Both the position numbers and the translations under genes were made by a program. Of a DNA stretch of 64,000 bases, positions 15,564-58,100 are shown piece after piece. Source of the DNA: Ruditapes philippinarum (Eukaryota); NCBI RefSeq assembly GCF_026571515.1, contig NW_026864289.1:124001-188000 (forward strand), in the 5' to 3' direction. Numbering within the stretch: the first letter of the stretch is position 1; every line of letters starts with the position of its first letter. The notes under the pieces were generated by a model. The model did no database searches. It was not told the origin of the DNA and saw nothing but the letters and a program-made list of their open reading frames with translations.

Positions 15564-17599
15564 TTACTCTTGCGGTCGCTCATATAAAACTTGATCTTGT
15601 TGATTGACTTCATCTCTACTCTGTTCATATGAATACTGTAAAGATATAAGTATAAAATAAATATTCAAAATAACCAAGACTTCCGCAATGTTTATAGTCT
15701 TAATTAATCGTTGTTCAAGGTTAGGTAATATTTTATAAAGTATTCGAACCTCGAAACTTTTTGTAAACGAAAACAATGACTTCACGATCTTTCAACCTTA
15801 CAAGATAGTAAAGTACAGGCTACATATATAGGCTAGTTATAGATATTATAACAATATTCATACCTTGGGTTCTGGACAGTTGTTATCCCTACACCACTTG
15901 GTAAACGCTTGTCCAATTTGCTTGAACCGAGGATCAGTGTCTGGGACTTTGCTGTAAATGCGAATAATTTGCTCCGCAAACGTTGCAGGAAGGACAAATG
16001 ATACCTTAAATTATGTTAAAATTTGTTTCATATCATTTTCATATATGTTTTAATTTTAGGATTCAATAGCGGTAACATTTAACACATATTTAAGACAATG
16101 GCAAAGCAATTTAAATGTATAGCAACACGTTAAGTTATGTTATTTCTCAAGTATTTGTTACAATTACTCAGTACAGTTACAATTAGTTGTTATGATAAAA
16201 GTATATTTGCGCTACAATTATGCTACTCGATTAATTTTTCAATTATTTAATAAAACAAACCTGATTTTTTTCTAACGAAATAGCATGATTTATGTCTGCC
16301 TTTCCATAGAAGCGAATTTTTCTCAATGGGTCCTTGCTGTTTTCTCCGTAATGTAGATTCATAAACTAAAATTAAAAACAACAACAACAAACAGCATACA
16401 ATTGGCAAACGTCTTTTTAAAGTGGATTTTATTCGCCTGTGTCATTCACTTATTGCCAGACCTTTGCCATGATATTTGCACACAAACCAATATGCCAATC
16501 GTTCTGTAGCCATTTTAAATCAAGCAGGATGCCCGATTCTTATCGCTATTCAAAGTTAATGTTTTTTTATGAGTTCATTCAATTGGCAATGGAAGGTTCT
16601 AAGTTCAAAGCAGAACAAGTTATAACATATAATTAAGAAGGTAATAACATGTGAAGAGAATCTAAGGAATTCAATACTTACATAGCAGTGAAATAGATCA
16701 ACTTCAACAGGTTCATTCCTGTGCTGAGTCATTATAGTCAGGAGTTGTTCCTTGAAATCTTTTTCATCCACCTTTCCTCTCTAGAAGATAATAATTATCG
16801 TATACATAAGATAATATGTGTTTGTGGAACATGATGAACATGATGAACAAACATTTCCAGAAAAATTGATATTTTGAACTTTAAGAAACGGTCTTATTTT
16901 CTATCTCACACATTCCTAGATGTCTGATATTAATTAAAGTAAAATCAATGCTTCACGTTCAAAAGTTATTTATAAGTCATGGATAAGTATAAAATTACTA
17001 AGTCATGGATAAGTTTAAGGTAATTAGAAGTCAGGGATAATTATAAAGGAACTAGAAGTCATTGATAAGTATAATGGTACAGGAAATTATGGATAAGTAT
17101 AAGGGTATAAGGAAAATGGATGAAAGAAACCTTTTTTAAAAATATATATATATTATACTTGATGACTATATTTTAATTACTCACAGGTAATTATTACAAT
17201 ATCCCATTAACAGTTGCATAGACACATATTTTATTATTTATCATTTTTTATGAGAAACAATAATATATTAAGTGTGTGTCACAATGCAGGTAAGAATAAA
17301 AGTGAATACATTTTAATGCCAGTGTTTCATCAATGAAATGATAAGTATTGTTTCGTATTAGCTGTAATGTAGTTGTGTTCAACCTTTATTCATAGTCATG
17401 TATTAATGTTTATAAATAGTATCTAATTTCACATGATTAACTAACACCCAGAATTTTATAATTATAACAACCAATCACAATGGATATGCTCTGGAAGCTT
17501 TGTTAAGGAGTTGTCTAGAATAAATCATCAGTTCTGAGTTGACCAACATACGCGACACATTGTTCTTCTCATTATTAAACAAGTATTCTCAGGAAAGGT

Positions 17600-17638
<39 letters not shown>

Positions 17639-20600
17639 GCGCACGCGCGCGCGCGCACACACACATGAACATGCACGCGTGCACACACAACGTATTTGCA
17701 TTAGGAAATTAAGAATAGAAGGAGATCATTTGGCTTTCGTACAAACAATGAATGATGCAATAATCACATATGAGAGGTGTTCAACTTATTGTAAAACACT
17801 ATCAAAATACGTTATAAGATCTTTCTTATAGCTTACATAAACTCGCGCAAAGCGATTCATTCATGTAAAATTGAAAATTCAATATGGTTAGAACAAAAAT
17901 ATATGATTTAGTTGAGGGCATTATTTAAAGACGTTTGAAGCAAAAAAATGTCTCACAGAAAGAAACGTTGTGAAACAAGTAAAACAGGTGTGACATAATA
18001 TTTCTGCTGCTACTGTGCATCGCATTCAGCATGGTAAAGGAGCTATTTGAAATAACATACAAGAAAAGGATTGATGCAAAGCATCAAAGAGCGTCCAAGC
18101 AAGAAATGTAGACAGTGAAGATGAACTAGTAGACATATGATGACAAGATATTCTTATAAACTTTTCAATGGTTAATTTGTTTTTACCAGAATCAACGGAC
18201 GAAAGACATTGTTCATTATGAACTTTGATTGGCATGCTAGAGATTATAATATTACTTGTTATTTCTTTATGATCGTGCTTATTAATAGCAACGGATATAC
18301 ATATATACCATCATTTATAATCCATATGTGTAACGCATGATCAACACCACACTTGTGGAATTGTCTCTTATTATGTTATCGCTATTAGAGAAGACCCCCT
18401 CTTTAAGGTATCTGTTCACATTTAGTAAAAATATGACACTGGTTATATTACCATGTTGATCATGTTGAGCATAATTGTTTATTATACAATAATTGTAATA
18501 TCTATTTTAATATAAAAAATACAGATTTTATGAATATTGTTTTCCTCTCTTTTTTGTGTTTTATGTGCTATTTTGATACTGAGTTTTTACGTTTACTACT
18601 CTTTTTTTATCAAAATTGTAAAACAAATTTTAAGAATACAATTGTCATATTGACCGACGAATATAATATTATATGACTTAACTGGAAAAAGTCAGTAAAT
18701 TATGTTTAATCTTTCAATATATAATATTATTTATTCTTAAACAATGTACATGTACATTTGTATTTTTCTTTATCATTTTTTTTAAATTATCAATCAATTG
18801 AATAATTCATAAAATCTAATTTGTAACATAACTGAATATTTCCTCGGCATCTTTACTAAACACGAATAACAAATTAAATAAAATGTTTCAAAGTTGATAG
18901 TGTCATATAAATACCATAAAAATGTACCTTTTTCTCAATTATTGCACATATTTATTGTTTTTATCTCATATAGATAAAATGAAACATGCTATTGTTGTTG
19001 GTTTTTTTTCTTCAAATTGTATGTTTAGGTATAATAATAATCACTAAATTTGAGAGTTGATCTGTGTTTATTAATTATTGTAAACAAACTGAGTGACAAA
19101 CATTCATTTTGGAAAAAAGCTTATTTATCTGTAAAATATTTGTTCTGTTCTGTAACGATATCAAACATCTACTCCAAAACCGGGAGAGACCGTGATACTA
19201 TTCGCCGGTCACTAGTAAATCCCGGTCAAAATAGACCAATTACCGATAGCAGTACATCCCTCTATAAATAGATTTTCGGAATGTTTAGGACACCAACTCA
19301 TCATTCTATTTTAACATACCATAATAACCCACTGTGTACTACAAAATGATAAACAAAAAAAAACCGAAGAGACGGAAAAGGTTTTTTCATGCACTGCGAA
19401 ATTCTCCAGTTCGCTATTCATTGTACATATCGAGACATTTTTTTTAATCAAGCACCCTCATACCGATCGGAATGATCGGCTTTTATTATGACCGACTAAA
19501 AGGCTCGAGAAGTTGCTGTCGCCCATTCACAAAATCTGATTTCATTCCATAAGGGCGCCGCGCTTTATTTTCTGCTGACGTCGTACACAAAATCAGTAAT
19601 ATAATCACGTTGGTGAATCCTCCAACACAAAGAAAAATGGCAGCTTAGTGTTGGGTGTCTCTAAGCACTGTCAACAGAGTTATAGCTGAATTCTAGAAGC
19701 GAAACTGTGCGGTCATAGTCCGTCTGAACTGTGGAAAATGGAAAAACACTGTTTTACATGGGCGGTAGTTACGGTCGACGTCTTGTTTGCTGCGTTCGAA
19801 CTAATGAGACAGACCTGAACTAACCTAAGTTTGAAAAACGAGATGCATTTGCATCTAGGTTAATGGTTTAGGCCGGGCTTGGTTTATGCCGGGGTTAGTT
19901 ACTAAGGCAAGACATCTCTAATTTTTATCAAAAAAAGGGTAGAAGTCAATGCAAAATATTTCACATACAAAGTTCTAAAGTCATTTCTCAAAAAAGATTT
20001 CCCCTGGAAGAGAGAATGACATGGTATTCCATCAAGACTCGGCCTCTAGCCATAACACTAAAATGATCATCAACTTTCTCAACAAACGCAAAATGAATAA
20101 ATAAATGAAAATGAATAACATAACACCTGCAGATGGATGTCAAAAAGCCCAAATGCTCCCATCGACTTGAAAGTAGGTTACAGGAACGCAAGATTTATAT
20201 CATGTCCGGTCTTAAAAAGGCATAAACGGTACTTTAGAAAGCTGGCTTAAAAGGTGTTGAATGATTTACTAATGTCATGGATCGATCATAGATTGAGCAT
20301 CTGTTGCAATAAAACACATGCAAGTAAATAGTGAAGTAGGTTTTAGAACTGTTTCATAATTAAATGAACACCTCTCGTATTTACTGAATCAGCTTGTATA
20401 TTTTAAGATTTCTATGATTGAACAAGATATTTCTACCTTTATCTGAGTTTGGCCAACAAATTTATATAGCTTTCTTTTCAGTATATCAGTCATAACTTTC
20501 TTTGCTTCTTGCAGATCTTTTTTAATCCTCTCTTCTGCACGAATTTCTTCCACCCTGGCTACAACACCATGTTCATCAGCCCACTCAGTCTGGTATGGAC

Positions 20601-23600
20601 TCCTCATTACAAAGCCAGTTGGTGGATATAAAATGAGCAAAATTATATCGTCCGTCAGTTGTGTAAATGCTTCAGGATCATCAACTGTTTCTGAAATTCT
20701 AAGAAGTATAAACAAGATTGTCTTAATATATAGGCATATCAAAAAACCCTACAAACCAACTTACCTGAAGAAATAATGGGCGGTCGTTATAAATTTATAG
20801 AACTCGGTAGCCTGCAACCATTTCGCTCGCTTGAAACAAATGAGCAACCACGTCACGTCATGCCCCTTCACAACTATCTGATTTCATATAATGATGGAAG
20901 TTTACCGATACTTAATTCATAGAACAAACCAGGCTAAAGCACGTTGTCTCATTCTAACGGGCCTCTGTTTTGCAATATACAAAACACGTCGGTGTAAGGA
21001 CTGGCTCTTGTATTGCATTGTCATTAACATTTGATTTGTTCTGTCTATCCATATATTATTAACCTTTAGAAACTTTAAAACAAGCTCGTTATGAAAAAAA
21101 TCAAATAACTTTTTTAAGGTTTTGTATTTTTTGAAATAATTGGGATAGTGTTGTGCGGACGTTATTGCTTAAGGATCTTTAATAGCCGCTTTTAATAATC
21201 TTCAATAAGACATTGAATGCATTAGACCCCAGTTTCCGTTACCAAATATAACCTTAATAAAAAAACACACATGTGACCTCGCTATACTTTACACAATAAT
21301 AAATCGTGTGTAATGGATAACTGTTTTAACAGTATCACTTACCATTGAAAGTTTTGAAATAATAATATGTCAATCTACTTTTCCTATTTATCTGAAATAC
21401 GGCAGTAAATCGACTTTGTTCGCCATAATATGTATAAAACACGTGAACTTTTGGGTTCTATAATCATGCTTCTTTTTTAATTAAAAATAGATCTAATAGA
21501 AAATAAAACAAAATAAACTTACATGTGCTAATTGCTATTTCTTGTTTATTAATAAACTATTAACAACAACGCACTTAATATAGTTATTGAAGATATGCTT
21601 ATATTTTGTTACGTTTTGCATCTACTACAGATGTTATTCTAACATTTAAGATCTAGTAATTTTAATTTTGTTTTGCCTCAAAATGATTCTCATGTTAAAA
21701 ACACATTTTCTACAATGCCATAAAAGACTGGAATTCTTTACCAGACAACATTAGATCAATTGACAATATCCAAACATCTAAAACGAAAGTAAAACTTTTT
21801 TAAGTAATGAAAATGATAAACAAGTGAATGTTATGTTTATTTATTATTAAATTGATGTGTAACTTATGATAAGGTTTTGTAACATGTTTATGTTGTACTT
21901 GATATTTTTTAGTTTAAACGAAATTTATTTCATTTTGTTTGTGTACTTGTCTTATTATATTGAAAAATGTGTCTTGATTGTTGAAAATTGTCATTTATTT
22001 TAACTTCTTTATAATTCATTTATTATTATGTAAGTTAGTGTAATAATTTTACAGTAAATGGACCCAATTGGAAATAAGCTTTTAGCTTAATGGGCAATTC
22101 CTAGGGTAACATAGAACATACTCATTGATTAATCTTATAATTATTTTTGTTGCATTTATGTGTGTGTTTTTATATATACGCAAGTTGATATATGTGATAA
22201 CATTGTATGTGTTTATGTCTATTCCCTGAATAAATCGATACGAACTAACAGATCAAATTTAATTTGCAACAAAGAAAATTTAGATGTTGATATTACTGAC
22301 TGTCACAATTTAGTAGCTACTACAATAAAAATGCAAACAAAATGTCAAACAAAACCGAAATTTGTTGAATTTAGATCATAAAAACGTTTTAATGAATCTG
22401 CTTTCAACACTGAACGATTCATAATGGGCGTTTGAAACACCTTTCAAAGACAAAGAAGTTGTAGATGAACATGCTCAAAAAAGAACATAAATTAAGATCA
22501 CAAGATGGTAAATTGAGAAAATTAATCTATAAAATAAAGCAACTAAGAAATCGCTTTTTCAAAAACCGTAATGACATTATTTGGATTAAGTTCCACAAAC
22601 ACAGACATTTGGTACAATGGCAATATGAATTGATTAAATGTATTATTATCTGAACAGTTGTTTGTTTGTTTTTTGTTTGTTTCTTATTATTAGTTTTATT
22701 ATTTGTTCATGTCGAATACAAGATTAAAGCTTATGTTTTGTAATGCTAACCATAACCACTATAAATAAAGTTTGTCTTACAGATAAGACGTATTAACATT
22801 CTACATATTTTATTAATAGCAAAAATCAAACTGGACAGACTTAGATAGATAGATTTATTTCGGCAAAGGAAGCATATACATAGTTGACAACATAACATAG
22901 GATAAAATAATGAGCATTATTAAATACTATATCACATACGAGAAAACTATGACATGCTCACCAAAACCAAGGATAACACAAAAAAGGGCAAAAAAGCTCT
23001 TATTTCCATTGTGGCCCTTTGTATTGGCGGCATGACATAGAGAGGCAGACCTAAATATAATCATGTTTAAAAATACTAATAAATCATAAAAATGTATATC
23101 ACAGTCAAATCTTGAGTTAATGATACACCTGTTTACAGCTAGAATTTAAAAAACATTACTAAAATTGTAAAAACATAATTAGCAGACAATTTAAAATCCT
23201 GAGCCGAAATATGTAAAAACAAAGTAAAAAAATTAAATACTGTTCATAAGATGACATTTGATGGCAACATTAAAACTTTGTAACCTGTTGATCTCCGTTA
23301 ACTCTACAGGTAAATCATTCAATAATTTAATACCAGAGAAAGCAAAGGATTTAGAACCCTGACCTTTGACCTAAGGTAGACAATACCCACCCTTTTGACT
23401 AAGTCTTGTACTATAAATATGTACGGAATCTTGCGAAATAAAGTGTTCAGACATGTAATCCGGAGACAGGCCATTTTTTTATCTTAAAAACATGACACAA
23501 CATATCTGTTCAACTCTTCTGTGGACCGGTAACCAGTTAAGGGACTTATGGGCTCTGGAATCCAAGTCAAGTACAAATCTTGACAAGTTTGTAACTTATT

Positions 23601-26600
23601 TTTTAAAGACTGTGTCAAGCTATTATACCAAACAGAGCATGCGTAATCATAGTGACACTGAATAAGAGACATAACCAGAAGTTTCTTGGTATGCTAAGAA
23701 CAGACTCGGCAATGGAGCAAAATGACAGATTTTGGTCTATAGTAATCCCAAGATACTTGATAGATGAAGTTGATTCAATGGATATACCAGAACAGGTTAT
23801 ATGCAGGTTAGATTGTGACCTAAGCTTTTGCCTAAACCGAAATAAAATTGACTCGGTTTTACCCAAGTGAAATGACAACTTATTGTCCACTAACCATTGG
23901 CTGACCAATTCCATATCATCTGTCAATGCCTTTTCAACAACAGATAAACACATGACACCAGACACAGACACATTACCAGATACAAGGATACCAGAATCAT
24001 CAGCATACAAAAGCAATTTATTACTGACCACAGCTGACATATCATTTACATAAATTAAAAAGAGAAGGGGTCCAAGGATTGAGCCCTGAGGAACATCACA
24101 TGTTATTTTGGAATTGGAAGAATAAGTACCACAGTACGTACCTAACCTGCAATGAACGATGCACTTTCATAATAATTCACTTACCTTTTGCCATTAAATT
24201 TAATACTTTCGTCTGCCTTTTTCAAAACATCGAGTATCCTGTAAACGAACTGCAGGTTATTGTGTAGAAATTAATGACATGATGCTCAAAACTATATAGA
24301 TGCCAAGAAGTACAAAAGTAGTTCAAAACCGAAAATCTTTCATTTAATCTACATATACTCTTATATAAACCATTCTTTCATTAATTCGGAAACGTATTTA
24401 TACATTTATTTCGTAAATGTAAAATGTAAACAAAAGGAAGGCTTTTAGAACATCATGTGCTCATCTAGAATTTTTTCAAGATAGAGAGGTAAAAACCTTT
24501 CATATCAATGAATTACTTCTATATGTTATATATTTTTATGCATTGAAGCTAATGTTATCAACCAAAATAATAATATTCTTTTAAGAACGACTGTTAAATA
24601 AAGTTTCTTGTATCTTGTTACAGTAATACATACAGTACTTTTACGAAATCCTGAAAAGTGTTTTAAAAATAATGAAATAATTCCGTATATATATGTTTCA
24701 GGGTGAGAAAAATGTGCAGCCTGACCGAGACTAGAACCCGGGCCCTCGGAATAGCGTACTGCGGCTCTAATGACTGAGTTTTCCTGCCGCTTACACACTA
24801 TCTCCACCGTGATATTTTGCGCCCAATGAGGTGTTCGTATCAGTGTTTAATTTACATTTCTCTGTTACCCTGAGAAATTCGAGGACGAATGTCAATTTGC
24901 GGGGGGAGTACGTCAAGGTTCAGAACTCTTCAATATTTAGGGGTGAAGATGTGTAAGCGTCCGGATAGCTCATTTGGTAGAGCGGTATTCCGAGGGCCCT
25001 GGGTCAGAGTCCCTGTAAGGCTGCACAATGTTCTCGCCCTGTGACATATACGTACATCGTTCTTATGACTGTATGTGTTTTATGTTGGTATGCTTGTCTT
25101 GTCAACACCATCTTTGTGTAAAACATATCGTACAGACCCTGTGCTTCCTGAAAAGAAGCAAGTTATTTCTTATCATGTTAATGTCATAATTTATGTTTTT
25201 AAATGATTAAATAGTGGAATGAGAATATAGACGCAACCTCTTGCTGCCGATACATGTAGCACATAGGTGCAACATTTCAGATACAAAAAGGTTCAGCAGA
25301 CATATCTTAGGTTTGCTGTACAGCTGTCTCCTATTATCTGTAACAATGTAACAATTGAGATTTTGCATCTTAAAAAAACTTGTTAATTAACAGTTTTGTA
25401 AATAGTAAAGGCTTTTTAATATTTCATTTGGCTTGTATTACATATATGGTACCAAAAAACAAAACAGGTGCCTCACCTTTTCCCTGTAACATATCTGTTT
25501 TCTTGGTACAATGGGTAAAACTTCACCTCTTTGTGACGCGTTGCTACCTTCACGACTTTCATTGTCTCCAGTTTCGTCATCTCCGTTTAAACCGTTGCTT
25601 ACCAGAACTCGTGCAGTAGCGAAACATCGATTGTAATCAAAATTTGTTTTGACTCCCAGCATGTAGCTATCACGTGCCAGATAGTCCCACTTGTCTACAT
25701 CAATTCCGTTCCTTTTATTGGCAACAATCTACATAGAAATGAATTTTTGCATGTGTATTCTGACATGGTCTAAAATAGCCAAACAAAATGGAACCTTAAA
25801 AGTCGCGCAACGCGACTATAGGTTAAGTGAAGTAAGCTGATTGCCGTATTCAAAACATGCGCATTAAATCGTTAAAGAACAATGATGAAATGCTTTGAAC
25901 GTCAATTAGTCCATACTTGGAAGTGTATGTTATACCAAGCATTATTACGTTGATTGCATTTTGTATTTAGTACATGTTTCATATGTGACAACAGAAAAAT
26001 ATTGTAAAATGGCCAAACGCAAACTTATTGCTGATTGCATATAAATTGAACTGAACTGTTATGTTATTCAATAAATTGTTTCTAAATTATTACACTATGA
26101 ATGTTTTTGCAACTTTATTTATTTCTTGGATTGAATAACGTAATTCATTGATTTCTTGATCTCGATTATAATACTATATACCTCGTACATGTAACTTTTA
26201 CTTTCATCTCTTCCTTTGTGTGGCCAAGGCTGAAATTGAACAATGGCATTTCAGAAATAATATAAGAGTTTTGAACAATTCCTTAAATTAAAAAAAAACA
26301 CAAAAAAAAACAAAAACAACAACAAAAAAAAAAACAACAACAAAACAAAAACCAACAAAAAATTATGATCGTAACTCTGACTGTGTGCCAACACCAAATT
26401 TTTTATGAAATGTGTTGGACAGCTTTTGAAAAGCTTATTAACTAAACAATTAAAGCGAGCAAAAAATAAATACAACACCAACGGAAAAATGTGTTTTGAA
26501 TTTATAGAAGTTTTAATCAGAAAGAAAGTTCAAATTGATATTATAAACATTCAACTGTACGTCCTTTATACCTGTCTCACGATGTCTTTGGGTTGATCAA

Positions 26601-29600
26601 TCATTTCTGTGATGAAAATAAAATCTTTTTCATCGAAATGTGTGAATTCTGGTGTATTACAGCTAGCAATATCCTCCTGAATTTTCTTTTTCAATGCAAA
26701 ATCATCAGCAGACAACATGTATTCAAACATTTTCTTTGCTGTATTCCGATGCTTTGATGAAAAACATGGGTTTAATTATTTTTCTTTTTTAGTTTTGTAT
26801 TAGAAGAATTATTTTATATACAAATCTAACAGATTACTTAAATATGCTTTTGGAAATCCTTGTCTGCTTTCCCAAAGTTAATATGAGTAATCCAAATCAT
26901 CAACTTGATGTTATGTTGGTTAACAAAAGGTCATGATCGTGTAAGATCTATAAGAAATTGCTAAATTATTTTTCTTCAGATTTAAAACAACAATAAACCA
27001 AGCAAAAAAAGAATAAATAAATAACAAATAAATAAATAAAAACAAGGAAATGTCCAAAACAGAAGCGTTTGGAAATTAATGCAATGAGGACTTATTTTAC
27101 CTTTTCAAAAATAAGAGGAAAAATGTAAAAAAATATAGTTCAGTACCTTATAATTTGCCCTTTTCTCTTTCATAAACATTTTTTCAAACACGTAGGAAAA
27201 TGGTCCTCTGCCTAAAATAATAATACTAATAATAATAATAATTCAATTTGAATTTCTAAGATAATAATATTTTAATTGCGTAAAAGTTGACGAAATAAAA
27301 CGAAATAATGTTCCCGTTGAAGACTAAGATTTTTCATCTTCAATTTTCAAGAACTAGTTTGTGTTGTTTGTGTTACTTGATGGATAAAAAGTGACTCCAA
27401 TATTTTTTTTTTGACTTAAATTTTTTCTAATTTTGTTGTACCATGATGGGGTAATTGTAATTTCAGATTTCATCGCATATTGTTTTACGTGCAAGTACCA
27501 AATAAATGAAAAGCGGTTACTCGAAGCAGGCTAAGAACCGCAATAAAATCGTATGTTTTTTCAAGGTTCAATTCTGTAGTTCAGTATTTCTTTTAATATA
27601 ATTTATATATATTTTTTTTGTTCGTTTTATGCAAAAATTTCATTTTTTGTTTGTAGGCTTTTGGACTTGAGTGGAGCTAATTGAAGAGTTCCTTTGTAAA
27701 TAATGGCTGAACTTTGCGCTAACAGAGAAGACTGTTTGAACTGGACAATTTCAACAGTGGCAAAACATATAAAAAGTCCAGCTAGCTGACGGAACGCCGG
27801 TGGTTCTACTCAGGTGCCCGTTTGTGCCTAAAATAATTTGAGGAAGGCATCCGATGATCGTTCTTCCTCCACCACCAGTACCGTAAACGGAACGTCGCGA
27901 TCATATGACTTTACTGTGAACGATGTTGACCGTTAAAACCCAAAACAAAACAACATAAGATATATAAAAAAAGAAACCTGACTTTATGTATTTTAGTCGC
28001 CGGTCGTATAAAAAAGTTTAGACAGAAGGTTTCCTATCAAGGATTGTGAAATACAGAATGTAGTCCAAATATGACTGATGCTTTAGGGTATATAGAGTGA
28101 AAATCAAAGTGGACCGACACTATAAGGAAAGTAAGCATTAGCTTAGTTTAGTTTATTAATAATTTATTTTATTTCGGTTGTGTTGAAAGCTATAAATTAT
28201 TGAAACACTCTAAAATCTGTTTCTGGAACCAACCAGTAAAGCAATAATTGTTAAGTTTCTTTCTCAAGGATTTAAAATTAAAACATACATTATAAGCATT
28301 GGCGCCAATGACTCTAAAAGACCGGCAAAAAGGAAAGAGATAATTACATTATGATAACATGGTTATATTTAACAGCTGCCAAACAGTTTGAAAATTAACT
28401 GATGTGAGTATACAATTCAGCAGATTCTTGGCAGACAGACAGACAGATCTCCTTATTTCCTTTTAAAGTATAATACAATAGGAGAAAGCTCGGGTTCATT
28501 GGGTCGCTCAATGGCGACATCGAAAAGTACGCTTTGCTTCAATGCTTTACGTTAACTTTAAAAACAATATCTTAGCCCTACCCAAATCATGACAGAGTCC
28601 AGCTATTTCCACACATAGAATATCCCTATCTGTAATCGGTTCATTTGGCTGGTGTTGACGGATAGATCTCAATAATTTTCCTGCCAGATAGCTGACTCTG
28701 TAACAAACATACATTTGTATATATTAGTTACATACGAGTTATTTGATTTTATTTTTTCAAACATTTTTATGTTCAGAATTGTATCGTTAAACAATAATAT
28801 TCTAAGCTCATCAGATTATATTATTTAAAGATATAGATATTTTACATAGAACTTCTTTGTTTGTCTTTGATCTCTATTTATTTGTTCAATTATTTTTATC
28901 GATGTCGTCATAATTTACAATTGCGTGTCTAAACTAAAAGTATTATTGCCTATTCGCTCAAAGAATGGTTACGATATTTTCCAAATGAAGATACGAATAT
29001 AGAGTATATAAGTTTTTTTTCAATTTGTGTTAAGGGTTATACATATTTGACCCGGGAAGGGCTGAACCAAATGTTGCTATAACGTGTTGCCCGACCTATT
29101 GGCTTTGTATTATACACTTATCATTTGTATACTATTTTAAATGTATTTGATGCAATTAAATATGTTTAAACTTAACTTATTTGACTAATCAATAAAACGA
29201 ATTAATAAATGTTTTATAAAATATGTTGATGAGTTTACCTACCCTATAGAGTGCTCAAACCTATTATGACTGGCACCTGGATAAACCAGGTAACAGGTGT
29301 CTAGTTGTTTAATGTGTCTTAGGCGCTGAAACTGAGGCGTGTCTATGATACTTATACATGCCGGATGCATTTCTATGGTTCCATGAATAGGATCGTTGAA
29401 TATCTATGCGAAAGCAGTTGATAATTGAATGAAAGCAACAAGTTATAAAGGTAACAACATTCTTGTGCAAAATAAATTGAATCTATCATGCAGTCAGTAC
29501 ATAATTTAAACGCACACGCACGCATGCATACGCGCACGCACGCGCGCACGCACGCATACACGCACGCACACGCACGCACACACACACGCACACACGCACA

Positions 29601-30253
29601 CACACACACACACACACTAACTCCACTCTTTCAAAAAACAGATCGATACATACATACAATCACTCGGGCACACAACAAGTAAAGTGTAAACGTTTAGGAT
29701 GTTGCATTTCGTTCACAATATCCTTCATTTTTAAATGTTAATTTGCATATACATGTATATAATATACATATTCCTTAGAATTCCTACAAATAATTTCATA
29801 TCGAAAACTGTTCAGAAACGATACACAACTGAGGTCAAGAAGCTTAAAGTTTAAAAAAATTTGAATCTGTTCCAAGGACCGACTGGGTCACTTAGAATGG
29901 AAAAAAAATTGAAAAAATAACGATTGATACTCAGAATAAAAGTGAAAATCATTTACTTGTGCTATTCTTAATCCGATTTGAGTTTAAGTTAAATGCGTCT
30001 CATTTTTGTGATATTGTTTTACTATTTAAATGATTGAAAACGAACTAAGCGAATTATCTGAAATTTTGGTCAAAAGTTATTGATCAGGACCCACATCAAA
30101 TTAAGTTAAATAGCACCCAATTCAGTCATGTGAAAAAACCTCAGTGGAGGTAAAACCAGATTGGCTAGCTAATTAGCATATATATACCTTTCCCTTTGTA
30201 GATTCTTTTTCTGCATTGACACCTGTATCGTGTTGGGCTTGATTTTGATCCAT
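15564..30253 (-). CDS. SAMHD1: SAMHD1-like HD-domain dNTP triphosphohydrolase paralog A (no SAM domain), ~570 aa, 14 coding exons
   Basis: Exons 30253-30188, 29403-29243, 28697-28582, 27211-27147, 26751-26572, 26229-26182, 25728-25477, 25147-25056, 24238-24185, 20698-20437, 16780-16682, 16365-16261, 16004-15864 and 15635-15564. All introns are GT-AG with compatible phases; 1713 nt with no internal stop. Motifs [96 protein letters not shown] and [19 protein letters not shown]. Confidence 0.93.
16973..17105. repeat. ~22-bp tandem repeat
   Basis: About 6 units of aagtcatggataagtataa(a/g)g. Confidence 0.7.
17603..17689. repeat. (CA)n/(CG)n microsatellite
   Basis: Directly visible alternating purine-pyrimidine run. 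Confidence 0.9.
19830..20260 (+). mobile_element. Degraded Tc1/mariner-superfamily transposase catalytic-domain relic
   Basis: Fragmentary [26 protein letters not shown]...[11 protein letters not shown]...[11 protein letters not shown] resembles the VW.G / QD.AP.H / W...SPD motifs. Confidence 0.6.
22840..24135 (-). mobile_element. 5'-truncated CR1/L2-type LINE (RT C-terminal part, 3' UTR, AATAAA plus (TCTA)n tail) in an intron of SAMHD1-A
   Basis: [66 protein letters not shown], with frameshifts and deletions. Confidence 0.88.
24694..25046. mobile_element. TGT...ACA-ended inverted-repeat element whose arms are tRNA-like
   Basis: Left arm tgtttcagggtgagaaaaatgtgcagcc...gaacccgggccctcggaata...gcttacaca is inverted in tgtgtaagc...tagctcatttggtagagc..tattccgagggccctgggtcagagtcc...ggctgcacaatgttctcgccctgtgaca; TATA on both flanks. 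Confidence 0.7.
27775..27950 (+). mobile_element. 5'-truncated tRNA-SINE copy
   Basis: ccagctagctgacggaacgccggtggttctactcaggtgcccg...cttcctccacca...catatgac...gttaaaacccaaaac matches the body and tail of the SINE family. Confidence 0.7.
29511..29617. repeat. (CACG)n/(CA)n microsatellite
   Basis: Directly visible; explains the spurious ORFs 29373-29615 and 29488-29682. Confidence 0.9.
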
Positions 30254-31142: not shown

Positions 31143-34100
31143 TAAATAAAGTATTAAAACATCTTTTTAGCGTTCTACGATTTCGATAAGGACTGCTTCA
31201 GAAATTCATTTTGCAATGCTTTATTCTAAATATCTAAGATATGTTTATCCAAAAGAAGATTCAAATGTGTTTTCTTACATAAATTTATATTAATTAAGTG
31301 ACTCCATGTGCTTAGTGGAAGATCACGTGGCAATGATACAAGCCAAACATATTGTAGTTTCGGAGAAGCTGACTTTCAAAGATTTTATTTTCATAGTCTA
31401 TTTTTAGCTTTTGTGACATACTTACGCATCAGATTGAAATAAAATAAAATGTTACTGTACCTATAACAGATTTTAAAAAAAGAAGCTACAAACCAGTAAA
31501 ATAAATTTCAACTTCCTGGACTGAATGTGGCTAGATTAAACATGAATAAAAAATTAACTTCTGCAGAATGATTAAATTACCACTTCTACGTAAGTTATTA
31601 TACTGATATACCTTTTGAATAAAAGCGCAGAAAAAAACATAAAGCGGTAAGATTAACTTCGATAAGGTATTTCTTTGTTTAATTGTACCGTAGCTGTCAG
31701 GTTTATAAGCATAATGTGCCTTCCAAATAACTTAATGATAACCTTTTGTAGAGTTCACCTATTAATTACACCTATTAATTATACTTCCTTTCAATGTGAT
31801 CGCTGTGCGATTGACAAGTCACAAAATATATGCTTTGTTTAGAAGATTATTTATGCACAATTACATTGTTACGTTCAGTTTTGTAATTATATTTCTCAAA
31901 TGTTTTTTTTTTATTTCTAATTATTTATAATAACTCTTTGGTGCCCTTCGTGCACAATGCTATCGATTGCGAAAAATGCAAAAGTAGTATATCTTATTTA
32001 TTTTTCTTATCAATCATTAGTCTCAAATTTCTTTTTATCATTATTTCATCATTTGAAAAAAATGTTTTGGCCATTTAATATTAAGCATTAGATCGATTGG
32101 AGTTAATATAATTTGTCATAGGTAACCTTTTGCTTATTGATATGATAGCTACATTACTGATTTGTTTATTAATTAGTTTCTTATTTAATGCTGTGAATGC
32201 CACGTAAGTAAACTTTTGCTTTAGTTGCTCTGTATATAATAATATCTATTCAGTGATGAAGTTTTAAACAGTTATGAAACCCCAAAAGAAACGACCGTAA
32301 GTGTTCAACATCATATGCCGACCAATTACTCCGATTTTCAAAAAAATGACTTTCTTAATCGTATGAACACTTATTTATTTAGCCGAACACTTAATAACGG
32401 TAATTAAGAGTTTGCTACGAAGTGCGCATGTGTAGAATGAATGTAGTAGCCCTGCGTAACTATTCCGACATGACATTGTTAAATTCAAAGCAAGAACTAG
32501 GTCAACGTTTCTTCTTCATAAAATTAATTACCGCTTTCTTGTGGAGGAGTCGTTTTGTTTTTAATCCCATGGAGAAAATGAATACAAACCCGAACATTTT
32601 GGTCATTTTGAACTGACAGATATTAATGATTGTCATTTAAACATTTGTCTATTAATGCACACAGTTGTTAAAGTTTCACTCCTCCTTTCACATTGTTTAG
32701 GGCTTACTTAAGTATATTTCACATGGAATTGTCCTCAAACCCACAGCCAGAAAGAAAACCATTCAGAGAAGGGCTAATGTTGATTACATCAAAAATCATT
32801 CACGTCCGATATATTTCATATATTTCATATTTCGCCATATTTTTCTTTGCTATTTATTGATTGATTGTCGTAGCTATTACATTAACTTTGCTGCCTATTG
32901 TACCCATTGTATTGTAAACGACCTTCAATAGGATGAAGGATTTTAAAGTACTAACTTTATTAAATAAAAATTGTGTTGTATTTTTGTTAATATTGCAATG
33001 TTAATGCATAAAATTGTCAATAATTCGGAGTTTTAAAATGTTCTTTTTATTGGGCTTTAGTCAGTCATATAAGCGAATAATTAACTTCTCCCAAACAGAC
33101 CCCTTGTTATACTAATTCTAACATTTTTTACAAGTTCATTTGTATCATAATGGTGTTAATTGAATATCAAACACATTAATTTAGTAATGTGGTTCTTTTT
33201 ATTACCCCGCACGGAATAGTTACCGTGCGATAAATTGATATTCGAAAACCTTTTTTCCATTAACGCACTGTATGCCTGTTTGTGCTGGTTTGACATATAA
33301 TGTCATATTCTTTACAGTAAACACAATTTTGTGACAATTTTATTCTTAGAGAATCCTGTCCTTTAATTTCATTATTACGACTCTTTTAACCAATAGTAAA
33401 CAAAAACATTCTTATTCAGTTGTAGGTATTGTAACTTATAATTACATTGATTAAAAAGTAGGTAAAGAAATGATTTTAATTAAAAGAAGTGACATGAGAC
33501 GCAAAAGCTTACTTCAGAAAATCGTTTTTCTTTTCTATCAGATTGTTCAAGTACACGTATCAAATCAAACATAAATCTAGATGTTATCCGGAATTCGGCA
33601 ATTGTGGGGTTCTCCAAGTTTATCGCCTGGTACCAACAAACTTTTACCGTTATAGCTTCAAGGAGCACGTTACATTTAATTACGAAGCTTTTAAATAGTA
33701 AAAAAATGTAGTGCAATCACTTCCCCTCCATACCTTGATCATTAATATGTAAAATGTTTTTGACAAGATTCTTTTTTGTTACGTGTACTACTGCTTCTAA
33801 CTTGATGATTGTATATGTTCACATGTTTTTTACATATTGTAAACTGTGACTCTGACAATATAGTTTTGAATTGAATTGAAATTGAAAAATGTAACTCCCC
33901 CGAATTTGCTTGAAAACCTCAAATTAAACAGTAAAAGGAATAAGTGCATAAGGAAAAGGTAACTTGCAAAATTAAGAATGTATTTAGTATTAATTACTGT
34001 GAAGAAATATTCGTACGTGTGTGATAGCATTAACTTATATTATCATATCAAAACTTATTTTATCTTGCGTGTTATGTTCAATTAGTATACTGACATATTT

Positions 34101-34429
34101 TTTTTAATTCATCAGTACTACTGAAAGTTAAATACCTGTTAAAATTTTGTTAGGTGATGTCGCTTTGGTAGTTTAATTCCGTTATTCTGTTTTCATTTAT
34201 TTTTATTTTTCATGTAACAAATGATTATGTATAAATCTCTCTTTGTTAAACTGCATTCTAAATTATGAAATCTCTCATTATAAATATATACATGTTAAAA
34301 TACAATCATGAAACATGATATACTTTACCTTGACTAATACAATAGTGAATGCACAGGTTCGGACGTAGATAATGATTACCTAACATGCATTTGCTGCTAA
34401 TTGAGATTTTGAGATTATTCTACCTACAA

Positions 34430-49131: not shown

Positions 49132-52100
49132 ATGGCAGATGAAGGAGGTGAAACAGGTTCGTCCAATGGTGAACAGCAACATCAAACTGATTCGGCAAAT
49201 AACATATTCATGAAGAGAAAGGTACATTAGCGATTGGATAACTTGCACAAAAATATTGCTGAAGGTGTCGCAATTATTTTTCATTTATACAATGCGCTGT
49301 ATATAGAATGCTGGAAATGTGAACAAGTCTTTGGGGGCGGCGTAAGGGGTGTTGAATTTTGTCATTAAACATTATGTACAGACTCAATCGAACAGAGTCT
49401 TCAATTTTCATGTAATTTTGCTGATAAACTTCCGAGCGATTACTTTTTTTTCCAGATATTTATTTTGATGCAAAGTAGCCGCACATGTTTTTATAATAAA
49501 CTTCTAACTGAAGGAAAGAAATTTAACAATCTAATCCAACAAGCATGCGTAAATATTATTTCAGACAATCTTTAAATTAGTACCAATGAACACTTCTGTA
49601 ATGGTTTTCGTCCAAAAAGATCGATTCATATGTTACTTTCTCAGTGGATGTGTAATGTATGTCTTAACGTTTGCTGGTGCTATTTAAAGCCCCACAAATT
49701 TCACGCTGTGTCGATTCAATTAAATACTGGAAGGTGTTTTATAAATCCTAGTGTATGATTGCTGGGAGAAAATATATGCTATCTTATTGATATAATGCTC
49801 ATTTATAAGCGAATTTCTTATGGTTTTCTATTCATATTCGTAAATAAGGTAATTTTAAATATCTTAAGTGATAGGCACACCATCAATTACTTTCGGTTCC
49901 TTTTTCTTTAATGCTTGATAAGGTCTACAACTAGTGTCTACGAATTTTCGGAGAAAATATTAATTCACCAATTTTCTGTGCGTACTCTATTTATAACGGT
50001 AAACATATTAGCAACCTGAATGCATTTTTTGTTTTCAAGTCAATGGCAATAAGTCAATGCCAGCCAATTCCCAAACATTAGTTTAGAAGATGCAATTTAT
50101 AGTTTATTCAAAAATAATAAAAAGGATTGCTGTTCCTAAAGCGGTTACGCAAAATTTTGACAAAAATTAGATCAGATACAATAAAAGGATGCAAACTTAT
50201 TTTTCTTTCGCTAGATATTCAACGATCCAATTCATGGGACAATGGAAATACACCCTGTTTGCGTCCGCATAATGGATACGCCTCAGTTTCAGCGGCTGAG
50301 ACACATCAAACAGCTAGACGCATGCTACATGGTATATCCTGGAGCAAGTCATAATAGGTTTGAACACTCTATAGGGTAAGTATATTTTCGGAAGGATTTT
50401 TAGACTGATACATACATGTATAATGTTAAATATAATCGTTTACCAGTGAACGTAATCACAAAATAATACCACTTTTGAAAATAAAATTAATAAAAGTCAA
50501 AAGAACCTTTAGATGTTAAGTCTTATCCTGTACATTCAATGACAGTCTTCACAGCCCGCATATATATTACAATTATTTTGATTGTTTAAAGTATGAAGAA
50601 GCACGTGATCTGTAAAAACCGTACATGATTGGTAAATCAAAGTTGTATAGTAATTTTATTGATAAAAACATGGTAGTTTCAAATTGGTATATTAAGGGAG
50701 TCACATATAGATGATAGAGACTACCTTCGGCTATTGATCGATTATTGTAAACTATATTCTTAATATAGATGTTTTAGAACAATTTTGAAATAAAATAAAT
50801 AAATGGAACTGTGTTGAATAAAAAGTTAAAATAAAATAAAAGACAAATTTGAAATTGCGTGCAATTCTGGATTACCTGCCTTTTGTATACAAAATGATCC
50901 CCACATACATGAATTATATATCTGTTTAAATTATCAAAGCTTTTCTCCACATGAAACCTTTTAAACATGTTATAATGTTTAACAAGTAAAGAAATTAAAA
51001 TACCTCGTTAAAAATTTGAAGTATATAAAATATTCCATTAATTTCTATAACTATGGATAAAATCGTGTTTCAGGGTAAGTTATCTGGCAGGGAAACTTTT
51101 AAAAACTATCAAAGAACAGCAACCAGAAGAAAACATTTCAGAGAGGGACATTCTGTGTGTGGAAATAGCAGGACTTTGTCATGATCTAGGTAGGTCTTCT
51201 TTTCGTTTATACGTTGTAAATAAGCTTTTGTAACATCAAAGTATACTTTAAATTGCCCTTCTCTCATTTGATACTACAAAAACGAGCGAATATTCTCCAG
51301 GTTTTTTTACTGTTTTGTTGTTTGTTTTTTTACTTCTGTTTAACAACTTGAATAGGACACTATTGACAATCATTGTGATGTGAAATGACTGTGCTATATA
51401 AGTGAACCTTTCCAAAGTCATTATCGTAATAGGTCGTTAATATAACTTTTCAATATAGCTTTATACTGTTGCTCATTTAAACATTTTGAATTTATATAAG
51501 ATTAAGCAAGAAATGCAAGTATTCCATGTATTTCCTTAATATACTGTTTTATTTGCATACAGGCCAAGGACCGTTCTCGCATGTATTTGAAAAAAGGTTT
51601 ATGCCTTCGGTAGAAAAGGAGTTTAAGGTAATAAACTGTTGTAAAGATGGATTCCACTTACAACAGCTTACATAATCATTACATAATGTTGTATAATATT
51701 ACTTAAAAAGTATAACATGTATAATTTTAAAGAATATTTTTAAGAAATATTAAAGACTTTAACTTAGATTTAAGTTTATTTTAAAGTTTAATTATAATAA
51801 ACATGTATTGTTTCATAGACACTTTATTCTTATTATTTATTAGTTTAATGTTAATTATAGTTTGTAGAACTTATTGATACATTCTTTAACAGTAACTTAG
51901 CATGGCCTAAGACTCTTTACATAAAATATACATAGAATGTTTCTACTTTTACTTATACTGGACTTTAAACTTAGTAAAATACATATTGTTAATTTAGCAT
52001 TTGCATAATTTATATATGTTTGTAAATATGTTTAGTTGATTATAGTTACTAGTATTATTGTTACAAATATTTTGCAAAATTTTATTATTTTTATAATTAT

Positions 52101-55100
52101 GGTTAATTGATACTGTTGCAAAATTTTCCATGAATCATTATTTATTTTTAGAATAGTTATGTAAAGCCCCAATAAGCTCTGATTGGCTAAAATTCATTGA
52201 CCAATCAGAGCAGGTCTGCATTTTACTGGTTCCACACAAAGTTCTGGTTCCCAGTAGTGTGCATAAATATAGGCACTTTACACAAATTTGTCATTAGAGG
52301 GCCTCCGGGGCCGAGTGGTTAAGGTCGCTGACTTGAGATCACTGGTCCCTCACCGCTGTAGGTTCGATCTTCACTTGGGTCGAAATCTTTCATGTGAGGA
52401 ACCATCCAGCTGGCTTACGGAAGGTCGGTGGTTCTACCCGGGTGCCCGCTCGTGTCTGAAATAATGCCCGGAGGGGCAACTGGGGTCTTTCCACCAAAAT
52501 AAGCTGGGAAAAAATCGACGAAAAAATCTCGGCGGGACACTCTAGGATGGTCCGACTTGAGTGTACGGTCGCCCATATGGATTTTCCGGCGGCTACCTTA
52601 ATAAAACGCATTAAAAATAATAATTATAATAAAAATTGACATTCTGCTGCTATTTTTTTGGAAATGTAACATCTCTTAAAGCTCTCTAAGGTTAATTAAT
52701 TAATTATTTAATTTATTTTAGGCACTTTGGCATTTAAATAAATCTTAAAAATTATCTAAATTCTCTAAAATATTTTAATTAATTTGTAAGTAATTTTTGT
52801 AAGTTCTTTTCACAAAATTAATTAAAATTAATTAATATCTTTTCTTTGTTTAAGTGGCAGCCATCTGAAATTATTAAATCTTTATTTTTGTTAATACATA
52901 TTAAAACAAGGCTTGCTACTATTCAACAGCACAAAATCATTACGGTTACTTTTCATATTTCATTTATAACAGTTTAAACAACTTTCAACTGGTTTAAATC
53001 TTTTATTTACTAGTTAATTTTAATCATCATATTTTTGGTTAATTACAAACAGTTCATATTAAAGTACATTTTTTCAACTTGTTTTGTTTTAAGTAACTTT
53101 TAGTTAAGTGTAAATAAAAACTAAGTTCATTAAAAATTTGGTTAATTTAAATTTATTCAAATTTGTGTTTTATTTCCCTTTGCATTCAAAGGGTGGTGTC
53201 ATACTAACAATTAAATTTATCCCATTAAAAAGTACTCCTAAGCAAACTAAAAACATTAGGTAATAAGTAACTAATTCTATTTATAAAAAAACATAAGGCT
53301 TTTAATTTTCAACACCACAACAATGGTGCCAAGTGGGATAAATGCCTGCTTCCATTTTTAGAAACACTTATTAACAATATTTTTAATCACCACAACAAAA
53401 CCATAATCATATCTGATATGCTCATTATTGTTATGTGGAAGAATACTGTTTTCTTCAATAGCTACTATTTGATGTGTGTTTTAATTGCTATATTTTCGTA
53501 ATATTATTTTAATTTAAGCATTTGGTCTTAAAAATTAAAAAGTCATGAATGTAAATAATTATCATAATACGAGATAAAATCCCCAAAATATCCCCAAGCA
53601 TCAAGTAACAAACAGAAAAAAAATATGTTCCATTTAACAGCATCAAGCCATGGCAAGAAAAATGTTTGATGATATGTTGGAGAGTACCGTACTTAAAGAG
53701 GATATTCAGAGGATTTTAGGAGAATGTAACATACAAGGCTTAAGAGAGTTCACAGAAGATGATTTTACATTTATCAAAGAAATGATCGATGTACCCAGAC
53801 AATTGGAGCAACAAGGCGTATATAAATTCTGTTCTTTGAAATTCATGCTTATTCCTGTTAAGATCTATTGAACAAAAACACCATGAAGATGCTTGAATAT
53901 TTCGGTTAAATATATGAAACGCATCTTAAATTTGTATTTGTACTCGTCTCTATGTTTGCAAATAAAGTTCTTATTTAGAAAATATCTGAGAATGAGTACT
54001 ATTTTTATTGTGGTTTCATGGAACTCTTTCACGATTGTGTGAATAATATATAATCTTATGTTGCATAATGATTTATAACAGCTTCAAAATTAATAACATA
54101 TGTCAGCTTTTGCTGTTCATGTTATTTTAAAGAAAATATGTTTCAGTCGTGGCCATACAAGGGTAGAGAGGAAAACAAAAGCTATATGTATGAGGTAATG
54201 TATATCTTTTCATATATATGGGATGATATGTGATTTTAATATTTTGTTATTGTTAATGTTACTGGCGGACACATAGTTATGCAATAGCTATAAACAATCA
54301 ATGTCTAAACCCTAAGACCAAATCAAATGATTCAGAATATATAAAGTTTTGTATTTTATCAGAACCAATGGTTATCGACCACAAATAGAATAAGCATCTA
54401 AAGTATTGTCCCCATAGTAAAATCCAAATGGATATGTCATTACATTGAAATTTATTTGTAAAAAAGACTCGGATTGTCAGGGAATTGAAATATAAATGGG
54501 GGAAATGTAACAGCCGATTTACTATAGAAAATGATTATATTTCACAATATCTATATTTGTATTTTTGCATCATTTTAAATGACTTATTAAAGGAAGACCA
54601 TTAATAAAAAGCAGAAATGAAATTGTTTTGAATTATTAGATTGTAGCTAACGGAAGAAACGGAATTGATGTAGATAGGTGGGACTATCTAGCACGTGATA
54701 GCTACATGTTGGGACTAAAGATAAATTTCGACTACAATAGATGTTTCGCTACTGCACGGGTTTTGAAATGCGACGGTTTAGAGAGGAAACAAATATGTTA
54801 CAGGGAAAAGGTGATAATTTTGTTTTGTTTGTACTTAATTAGCGCAAAAACAGCAACTGATGATAAGTCCTTAGATTCAATCGCCTAAACTTATGATAAA
54901 TGAAAAATAAGAAAAAGATTTGTTAAAGGAAAAGGGTTAATATTGTGTGATTGCATTGTAAGCCGAGATAAATTGAATTGATAAGTAAATAAATATATAC
55001 TCTCTAAAATTTGTTATGTTTAACACTAATAAGATCACAGTGATACAGATTACTTATAGATTTCGCGAGTGTAGAACAAAAGTCTTCTGATACACATACA

Positions 55101-58100
55101 TTCAAGTCAAGATGATGAAATGGACAAACTCTCTCATCATCAACAAATAAAATGCCTTCTGGATAAAAAGCAATCTTATGAAATTTTTATTTTACTCATG
55201 TTTATCAGAAAGCATTTATTATGTGTCTCAACAGGTCACGTAATTGTTTCTTTCTTGAACGGTCAATAAGCAAACAATGACAGATAATGATAAGGATGTA
55301 TATGTTTTTTACATAGCAAACTTAATTTTATCTTTGAAGGAAGCACATGGTTTGATCAGCATGTTTTACACCAGGATGACTCTATACAGACAGGCATATC
55401 AACATAAGACACACTCTGCTATCGGCATGATGTTCGTATACATGATTACATATGTTAAAACACTGAAAGACATTTCTATAGCATTACCTGCCTTTTTTAT
55501 GTTCTTTGGATATAAGGGTTATCTTTATACATGTTATTCCACATGTTGAACTGCTCATCTGTCATGGATAAATGATATTAGAAAATGATAAAACCATTTT
55601 TAGCGTAAGAATGAATTCTTGAAAAGTGTTACATTAGAAGTGTGTTTCAGTTAATGTGTTTAACATGATTTAATGTAACTTCTCAAATTCAAGTGAACTA
55701 CAAAATCTATAACATAAGATATTTACTGGTTTTTTGCTTTATACATTTAAGTCAAGGAAAGGTAAATGTCTACTTTAGCAATATATATCATTTTCATGTC
55801 TACCTTTTTTGAAGAATTGCTACACAAAGTTCATCTATTTGTTGTATTCATGTTAGTTTTTTTCCTTTTCTTCCCCTATAAAATATACGACAATTATCTT
55901 ATGATTGAAGATATAAAAACAAAACGATTTTGTTGCGCTAAATAAAAATGAATTATTTAAGACATCGGGGTAGAAATTAATAACATATAGATGTAATGAA
56001 AATGTTAATACTTCATGAATTTGTGGAAGGAAAATAACCACAAAATATTCAATCAATGCATAATAGTGTCCCTATTTATACAGCTATGGTGTAAACATCG
56101 TTATGTTAAGCGAGATTTGCGAAGTCAGTGTTATAAATTAGTAATATAAGTCAAAATTACATTTAATTTTCAGGATTATATAATGCAAAATTGCATTTAA
56201 TTTTTAGGATTTATGACGCCCTTAAGGATGCAAATGACAAAATTGAAATTGCTGGAAAGAGGTAAAATATAAAGTTTAAGGATATATTTAATGAAAGATT
56301 ACAAGATTCTACTGATTTTCAATTTTGACGGAATCACGAACAAATTTAGAATTCGAATATCTGTGATATACTTTGTTCCCAAAAGACTAGCAAAGACAGT
56401 TTAGTGATACAATATCAAGATATGGTACATTTTTGACAAATTTCATACGAACAAAAACATCGATATTTAGCTAACTAGTATAAATCTTCACTCTAATTTA
56501 GAACATAGTGAATGTAGCGAATTTGTAGCATTTCAGATGCAGTTGACGACACGAAAGCGTTTACACTTTTGACAGATGACATGATCCTTACCATTTTAAA
56601 TCCTCTATTAAGTGTTACACCATTCAAAAAGCCTGGAAGCGGGGATCCTACTAAGGCTAAGAAAATACTCGACAACATTTACAAGAGGAATCTTTACAAG
56701 TTTGTTACAGAATTGCACATTCCGGTAAACAACGTAGTTATCAATATTTTTTATCCTAGTTTATTAATTAAAGAAATATAGTTTATTCTGAAAGCCTACT
56801 CTCTATTATGCATAAATAGATTTAAATTTGTATTTAAGAAAATTATCTGAAGAAAATAAAATGCATGATTTTATATATAATGCTTAATCATCATTAAAGT
56901 TGTGTCTAAAATAATCATCTTTGACAATGAACAATTGTCAATCTTATTCATTATTTATTTTAATTAAGACGTTAAGATGTATAATTTTTATTCATTATTT
57001 AGACAAAGAAGTATGATTTAAACAAGGTTAAGAAACGCATAGACAAGTTTCTACGACCAGATAATGACTCTGTTAAAGACCTGATAGAATATGATGTGAG
57101 TGAAACCTTCATTACTCAAAAATTTTTTATAAACAAAATCTTGTTTGGTCGACATCATCAAAGCGTACGTGACAATATGCCCATTTAAATTAAAATGGTG
57201 AATGACCACGTAAAACTTAAAATAACTTCATGTAATAACTTCATGTTTGGTCTTTATTGTCTTCAGTTATATATCTTAATTTATATAAATATCGTTCAGA
57301 ATGCAGTGGTAGCGTTTGATTTTTATAAAGAGTGGGAAAACCTTTTTCTTATTTTCTATCCTAAACATTTATCATTAAAATCTTGATCAGGATTATAAAA
57401 AACAATCTTTTAAAATAATAACTCAAAGTTATTTCTTCCGCTAAACTGGACAGCAAAAATATGAGCATAATGACACTATGGCTGTGCTTGGAAAAGAAAT
57501 CGCATTAACTGAATAGAGAGAAATAAAGAATCCCTAAAGACGCTCAAATCGACAAAATTGAAAATGTTGCAGGCTCGGTTTGATTGAGCCTGTTTATGGA
57601 CGGTAATGGAAAGTGCAAGTTACCGCCAACCTAGCACCTGCTTAAGCAGTATTCAACATTTAACACGTATTGGTATAATTTGGAAATTTGAAACATCCTC
57701 AGAAGCCTTTACTGAATAAAGTGATACATGAATATAATTTCATTAAAAAGGTACATCTTTTAGGCAGGCTTTCAGCCGTAAAATGTTTATATTCTTTGTT
57801 GCTTTGGTGATTTTATTCGTGTTAATTCATTATAAATGATTTAATAAGCTTTAAATTGACGAAAACCTTACTTGGCTCTGCAAGATATCTTTATAATGTC
57901 TTTTGTGCTTTTGAATAGCTGTAACAATTGCTCCCAATTTCATTTTAATAGTGTTAGATATTTCTTCCCCTACGGGAACATTTATTATCTAAAATTGAAT
58001 ACTGCTAAAGCGCTGATGTTTGAAGTTTTGAATGATGTTGCAATTGTTCATAGTAAACAACCGCAATCGGACCGAGTATGCAACATTCGTGTATTGTATG

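Follow-up and report, generated by a model that had tools for sequence, protein, structure and literature searches.

Can a gene of the SAMHD1 family that no longer encodes the catalytic acid of its enzyme be kept as an intact gene? The question is raised by the window analysed here, the whole 64-kb stretch of Ruditapes philippinarum DNA, which carries two SAMHD1-like genes placed head to head, gene A (30253-15564, minus strand) and gene B (49132-60138, plus strand). A first-pass annotation had taken A for a probable pseudo-enzyme, in which the equivalents of the histidines H210 and H215 of human SAMHD1 are replaced by arginine and tyrosine, and had supposed that the gene is nevertheless maintained by selection.

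Gene A consists of 14 exons, all on the minus strand and with AG/GT ends throughout, and together they give a single ORF of 570 amino acids identical to RefSeq protein P0204, so that the earlier description of all the exons as intact is borne out. Residues are numbered here after human SAMHD1 by alignment, in which A22 corresponds to human position 116, and thus R116 and Y121 of A stand at H210 and H215. Translation starts from the ATG at 30253 in exon 1 (30188..30253), and a SAM domain is absent, as in many invertebrate relatives, the HD family being the sole one found. Exon 2 (29243..29403) retains N119, D137, Q142, R145, Q149, L150, R164 and H167. Exon 3 (28582..28697) has the HD motif at its end (H206 at 28591-28589, D207 at 28588-28586) and closes with CHDL plus a G in phase 1 before a GT donor. 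The 65-nt exon 4 (27147..27211), which follows an AG acceptor, carries R210 (27209-27207), Y215 (27194-27192, TAC) and E218, and it has one DNA match in the assembly, that is, it is single-copy. The first residues of exon 5 (26572..26751) are HR (CAT CGG), in which H233 is retained and E234 is changed to R (26748-26746). After exon 6 (26182..26229), exon 7 (25477..25728) retains D311, K312, Y315, D319, D330, R333, R352 and K354 and contains an inserted loop of low confidence. Exon 8 (25056..25147) shows N358G, H364Y, R366K (25114-25112), H370T (25102-25100), R372Q, N380T and D383R while retaining D361, Y374, Q375, H376 and K377, and it has no match above 75% in the genome besides itself. Exon 9 (24185..24238) is followed by exon 10 (20437..20698), with R451, K455 and an insertion specific to A, by exon 11 (16682..16780), and by exons 12 (16261..16365) and 13 (15864..16004), which retain K523 and R559, respectively; exon 14 (15564..15635) ends with the stop codon. 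Two of the introns contain repetitive material: a reverse-transcriptase fragment (PF00078) lies in intron 9 (24166-23618, minus strand), and short repeats in intron 3 (27777-27837 and 28197-28238) collect hundreds to thousands of RNA reads, which continue into unlike sequence and come from abundant transcribed interspersed repeats.

The sister paralog B is described by a 13-exon model of 506 amino acids (49132..60138). It reads HDLG-Q-GPFS-H, has Q234, R312 and Y370, retains R366 and H215, and carries D361S at the tetramer interface; no protein identical to it was found among the retrieved proteins. A block upstream of A (34100..34380, minus strand) is 67% similar to one upstream of B (48466-48797, plus strand), has a splice-donor-like site at its end and has a second copy upstream of B (46697-47118, plus strand); it is likely a promoter or a non-coding first exon. 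The rest of the window contains, on the plus strand, a frame of 415 amino acids for an SLC52 riboflavin transporter (6889-8133, PF06237), an open frame of 345 amino acids for a Tc1/mariner-type transposase (9812-10846, PF01498 and PF13358), and a 224-amino acid frame upstream of A (34747-35418) with no Pfam match, which looks like a piece of a retroelement RNase H.

What has A lost, and what has it kept? Alignment with human SAMHD1 confirms R and Y at positions 210 and 215 just past the junction of exons 3 and 4, HR instead of HE at the beginning of the next exon, and K366 and T370 in exon 8, all as first proposed, and the present analysis adds D383R as a further change. In an alignment of 96 of the 210 retrieved proteins, from which fragments and long fused forms were left out, the 93 rows other than A have H215 in 91, E234 in 91, R366 in 92 and H370, which we take to be a substrate-pocket residue, in 89. 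With these residues near-universal in other proteins of the family, the changes of A are not due to chance. In the terms of a canonical dNTPase, the general acid H215 is absent from A (Y215 with E218), and the second-shell and substrate contacts H210, E234 and R366 have become R210, R234 and K366. All the Fe ligands (H167, H206, D207 and D311) and the Mg ligand H233 are present, the guanine allosteric site A1 (D137, Q142, R145 and R451) is intact, the sugar gate (Q149, L150, Y315, D319, Y374 and Q375) is unchanged, and the phosphate contacts R164 and K312 are retained, together with N119, D330, R333, R352, K354, H376, K377 and K523. Among the residues of the A2 site and the dimer-dimer helix, 8 of 11 are kept (N119, D330, R333, R352, K354, N358, D361, H364, R372, H376 and K523 being considered). 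Three of the four dimer-dimer residues differ from human (N358G, H364Y and R372Q), and these differences, shared with sister copies including Mercenaria P0033, make a canonical tetramer of A uncertain. None of the 12 allosteric residues that are invariant in seven Q-clade sister copies is changed in A, and conservation of the guanine site by itself is non-significant (p=0.21). Membership in the family is seen from a PF01966 match, an E-value of about 1e-110 to SAMHD1 in the PDB and atlas neighbours that are SAMHD1 clusters, and an AlphaFold2 model of A (pLDDT 87) has a TM score of about 0.73 to human SAMHD1. Its fold, metal site and A1 thus place A in the SAMHD1-like family, but the catalytic features that define a canonical dNTPase are missing from it.

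The weight of each change can be judged from published mutants, with the reservation that alanine mutants are a proxy for H215Y, H210R and E234R. The assignment of H215 as the general acid agrees with PMC7311409, in which H215A has no measurable activity while its tetramer formation and substrate binding are unchanged, and H233A lowers activity about 300-fold. In a bacterial homolog, H125A, which corresponds to H215, lowers activity about 16,000-fold, and this His is called universally conserved (PMC9257424). As to the pocket role first given to H210, R366 and H370, it holds for the former two, H210A disrupting both catalysis and substrate binding (PMC7045340) and R366A lowering kcat about 300-fold (PMC11074143), and is putative for H370, of which no mention was found in PMC7311409, PMC11074143, PMC7232136, PMC3918895 and PMC7045340; PMC7232136 and PMC3918895 have nothing on any of these residues. 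The base pocket is lined by N380 and D383, and the dimer-dimer network consists of N358, D361, H364 and R372 (PMC7045340). R366C and R366H lose dNTPase activity and show weaker nucleic-acid binding while keeping dNTPase-independent functions (PMC8497992). R366K is indeed present in A, but it is a conservative change, and harm is known for R366A, R366C and R366H only. Positions 210 and 234 are second-shell ligands of Mg3, and both are Asn in the active bacterial dGTPase (PMC9257424). From this literature on 210, 215 and 234, Y215 would be the decisive change in A, and copies with Q210 may well be active; in A, the arginines at 210 and 234 would be an added disturbance to the catalytic Mg. Oligonucleotides bind SAMHD1 via A1 and H376 (PMC7854603; PMC10711556), and 8 of the 11 cationic residues of the RNA side described in PMC10711556 are found in A.

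Could R210 and Y215 be simply an error of the assembly? Two Logan proteins of 612 amino acids, P0024 and P0206, fall in the same 90% cluster as A, P0024 being 93% identical to it, and both agree with A in having R, Y, R, K and T at the five positions. Since two further full-length versions have these residues, an assembly error is rejected. Their contigs of 2934 and 2819 bases are most likely spliced transcripts, because a gene of 14.7 kb has its complete ORF within a contig of less than 3 kb, and the two proteins may be alleles or close copies absent from the assembly. In both, an N-terminal segment is duplicated (612 versus 570 amino acids), and the three versions of A differ at 40 core sites, which is high for alleles. 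Raw RNA reads of four 2026 runs placed over 26520-28760 cover exons 3 and 5 at a depth below 10 (X21 and X22) or zero (X23 and X24); they give no coverage of exon 4, which at 65 nt may simply escape read placement, and no splice joints. The residues of A are confirmed at the level of the protein versions, the reads having been placed over the span of exons 3 to 5.

The first-pass annotation treated A as one of a pair, and in this respect it fell far short: in the 1.41-Gb genome of R. philippinarum, exon 2 has 35 matches, made up of 34 loci and a partial duplicate of the exon, and exon 7 has 33, though such counts are lower bounds and some near-identical pairs may be haplotypes. Exon 4 is readable in 31 of the 34 loci (L031-L067), where position 210 is Q in 17, H in 13 and R in one, which is A. 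H215 is kept in 30 of the 30 other copies read and lost only in A (1/31). Loss of H210 as a diagnostic feature of A is thus rejected, as Q210 is common to the whole clade, including its Mercenaria members. Exon 8, read in 31 loci, has K366 only in A; H370 is replaced in 7 of the 30 others, which weakens T370 as a diagnostic feature. In a quick protein tree of 56 rows, with long fused proteins trimmed to their HD part, A groups (support 99) with the Q210/H215 proteins B, P0030, P0031 and Mercenaria P0033; its long branch, 0.69 compared with 0.17 for P0030, arose after the split from P0033. The venerid Q210 clade (P0030, P0031 and B of Ruditapes; P0033, P0028, P0032 and P0037 of Mercenaria), in which A is nested, shares with it D151, E218 and Y364, but its other members all keep H215 and, where it was read, R366 in all but Mercenaria P0041, and R210/Y215 occurs in A only. 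Because A is nested among Q210/H215 relatives, H210 was replaced by Q in the ancestor of the clade, and R and Y appeared afterwards, within the Ruditapes line alone so far as the retrieved proteins show. Three of the changes in A are two- to three-base substitutions compared with most sister codons (CAA>AGA, GAA>CGG and CAT>ACA).

The suggestion to look for R and Y in orthologs gave a divided answer: neither full-length nor fragment searches found an R/Y protein outside the A cluster or an R/Y ortholog in another species, the best full-length relatives being 57-59% identical, and the general decay of A that was feared is not seen. The 278 retrieved proteins, of which 34 gave no motif match, yielded 266 domains with the motif, and HD-R-Y is confined to the three versions of A; five other domains, from Dreissena and cyprinids, have Y215, each also lacking an HD ligand, and two others have R210. 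Some copies in the genome are broken or degenerate: exon 8 is disrupted in L032, exons 4-6 were not found in L036 and L043, a single base is inserted where exon 7 of L038 ends, L066 has a frameshift in exon 2, and L052 has H206Q and has lost the D311 motif, some of which may be assembly errors. A is unlike the truly broken copies. The Q210 clade also includes long proteins (P0052, P0047, P0036, P0058, P0048 and four more from Mercenaria) with an N-terminal extension of 360-390 amino acids, which has an R-N-K-L/V-V-H motif and, in three of the four scanned, a sub-threshold match to HEPN_DZIP3 (E 0.0008-0.009), and these are possibly HEPN-SAMHD1 fusions. In the literature searched, mostly outside subscription journals, nothing was found on a clam SAMHD1 expansion or on such a paralog; a clam transcriptome paper mentions an up-regulated SAMHD1-like gene (PMC13266081).

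Selection acting on A was examined with a home-made codon model that covered 293 codons of exons 2-9 and used 11 of the 28 copies aligned by codon. The A branch has a dN/dS of 0.18 with a dS of 0.67; this ratio is significantly less than 1 (p=1.7e-5) and indistinguishable from the background (p=0.34); such a branch average could predate the catalytic loss. It is to be noted here that none of the 40 sites differing among the three versions of A falls on the 144 family-conserved positions (p=1.5e-6), or 0 of 26 within family-aligned columns (p=3e-5). As all three versions have R and Y, this constraint on the conserved sites post-dates the R/Y change, and the supposed maintenance of A by selection is borne out as purifying selection. 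Thus, an essential catalytic residue is lost while the fold, in the predicted model, and purifying selection persist, a combination expected of a pseudo-enzyme. Conserved sites are changed at 10 of 145 positions in A and at 6-10 in the seven Q-clade sisters; of the 10 changes in A, 4 lie in the pocket, where those sisters have none. How far the pocket is enriched in changes varies with the residues chosen (p=0.018 and 0.28; 0.145 and 0.018; 0.055), and as a borderline and list-dependent statistic it was set aside as support.

We regard A as an intact and selectively conserved SAMHD1 paralog in which H215 has become Y, likely a dNTPase-dead binder of guanine nucleotides or single-stranded nucleic acids, and give this reading an even chance. 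GTP, or G-containing ssRNA or ssDNA, would dock in A1 and dimerise A. A dNTP might still enter the metal site, where Y215 would poorly protonate the leaving group, and R210 and R234, in place of both second-shell ligands of the catalytic Mg, would make hydrolysis stall. The role left to A would be a dNTPase-independent function of SAMHD1, either the binding of nucleic acids in defence against viruses or retroelements or the trapping of nucleotides, while dNTPase supply would be left to the 13 H210/H215 copies; the defence role is suggested by what the family does. The first conjecture of an enzyme that is dead or changed in chemistry and serves another role is thus strengthened by the intact and selected gene and by the H215A data, and as to function it stays a conjecture drawn from the sequence.

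That all the metal ligands are retained, together with the sugar gate, would suit an active enzyme as well. A may have been neofunctionalised, so that the metal site activates water in a pocket rebuilt by R210, Y215, R234, K366, T368V, T370 and R383 for a different substrate that carries more negative charge and has a better leaving group, such as a cyclic or modified nucleotide; we consider this possible, though improbable. HD domains host many chemistries (PMC8177086). Every metal ligand is in place, the branch after the split from Mercenaria P0033 is long, and at 22 pocket and helix-13 positions Lys plus Arg rise from 3 in the sisters to 6 in A while His falls from 5 to 3. A home-made branch-site test gives a weak signal for A (p=0.019) compared with B (p=0.11), its top sites being H370T (0.99), a P>K change after the 215 helix (0.98), T368V (0.91), E234R (0.83) and Q210R (0.65), but the test was run on two branches, and tests of this kind are inflated by codon changes of more than one base. 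The pocket enrichment varies with the list (p 0.018 to 0.28), the deoxyribose gate is the same, and the analyses provide no candidate substrate. A bolder proposal, to which we can give only a small chance, is that the roughly 34 copies form an immune arsenal and that positive selection rebuilt the site of A, where three new arginines and a tyrosine surround a metal centre that is still intact, into a receptor or hydrolase for a non-dNTP nucleotide, e.g., a cyclic dinucleotide or one modified by a virus.

The kept metal, phosphate (R164 and K312) and sugar contacts could alternatively serve residual dNTPase activity, slow or normal, with Tyr215 or water as the acid, and K366 is conservative and the bacterial dGTPase tolerates amides at both 210 and 234. 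This is unlikely: H215 is found in 91/93 other aligned proteins and 30/30 other clam copies read, its loss abolishes activity, Arg at 210 and 234 is a change of charge and not an amide, and the five other retrieved Y215 domains have also lost an HD metal ligand. We are equally doubtful that A is a regulatory subunit joining active clam paralogs and damping or tuning their dNTPase; dead H215A still tetramerises, the allosteric nucleotide residues of A are retained and the genome offers many potential partners, but the interface residues are unlike those of human. Least of all would A be a decaying duplicate or an assembly artefact in a birth-and-death family. Several genome copies are broken, and A is single-copy, has low RNA read coverage and is seen in one species only, but the unbroken ORF over 14 exons, the finding of these residues in two independent full-length versions, the dN/dS of 0.18 and the 0/40 differences on conserved sites largely refute this, and its chance is very slight.

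With which known systems can the favoured dNTPase-dead A be compared? It resembles human SAMHD1, especially the H215A mutant (PDB 6XU1 and 7A5Y), in its fold (TM about 0.73), 39-40% identity, Fe and Mg ligands, A1, most of the A2 phosphate residues and sugar gate. It differs by the lack of a SAM domain, by R210, Y215, E218, R234, K366, T370, T380 and R383, by N358G, H364Y and R372Q, and by two inserted loops, and while H215A is engineered, A is natural and conserved by selection. The active dGTPase of Leeuwenhoekiella blandensis has Asn at 210 and 234, akin to the two Gln of gene B, but it possesses the catalytic H125, which has no equivalent in A (PMC9257424). Tandem HD-HD SAMHD1-like proteins of Dreissena (P0210, P0121 and P0104) and cyprinids (P0003, P0010, P0012 and others) have one degenerate domain with Y or S at 215. 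The degenerate second HD domains of Dreissena P0104 and P0210 and of these three cyprinid proteins have Tyr215 like A, those of Dreissena independently of it. They have, however, lost metal ligands (ND or YN for HD), and in P0210 the domain is joined to an HD domain that is intact, whereas A stands alone as a protein and its metal site is complete. Degenerate SAMHD1 domains thus recur in animals, and the unusual part is a stand-alone one with the whole metal site.

SAMHD1 has dNTPase-independent functions, which in human cells have been studied with engineered mutants. The present case is a single gene in a single species, read from sequence. If true, a natural and selected copy that lacks the acid and yet has its metal and guanine sites would be a separation-of-function reagent made by evolution, and the H210, Q210 and R210 classes of the expansion, together with the HEPN-like long forms, would make a panel for the study of substrate change in invertebrates.
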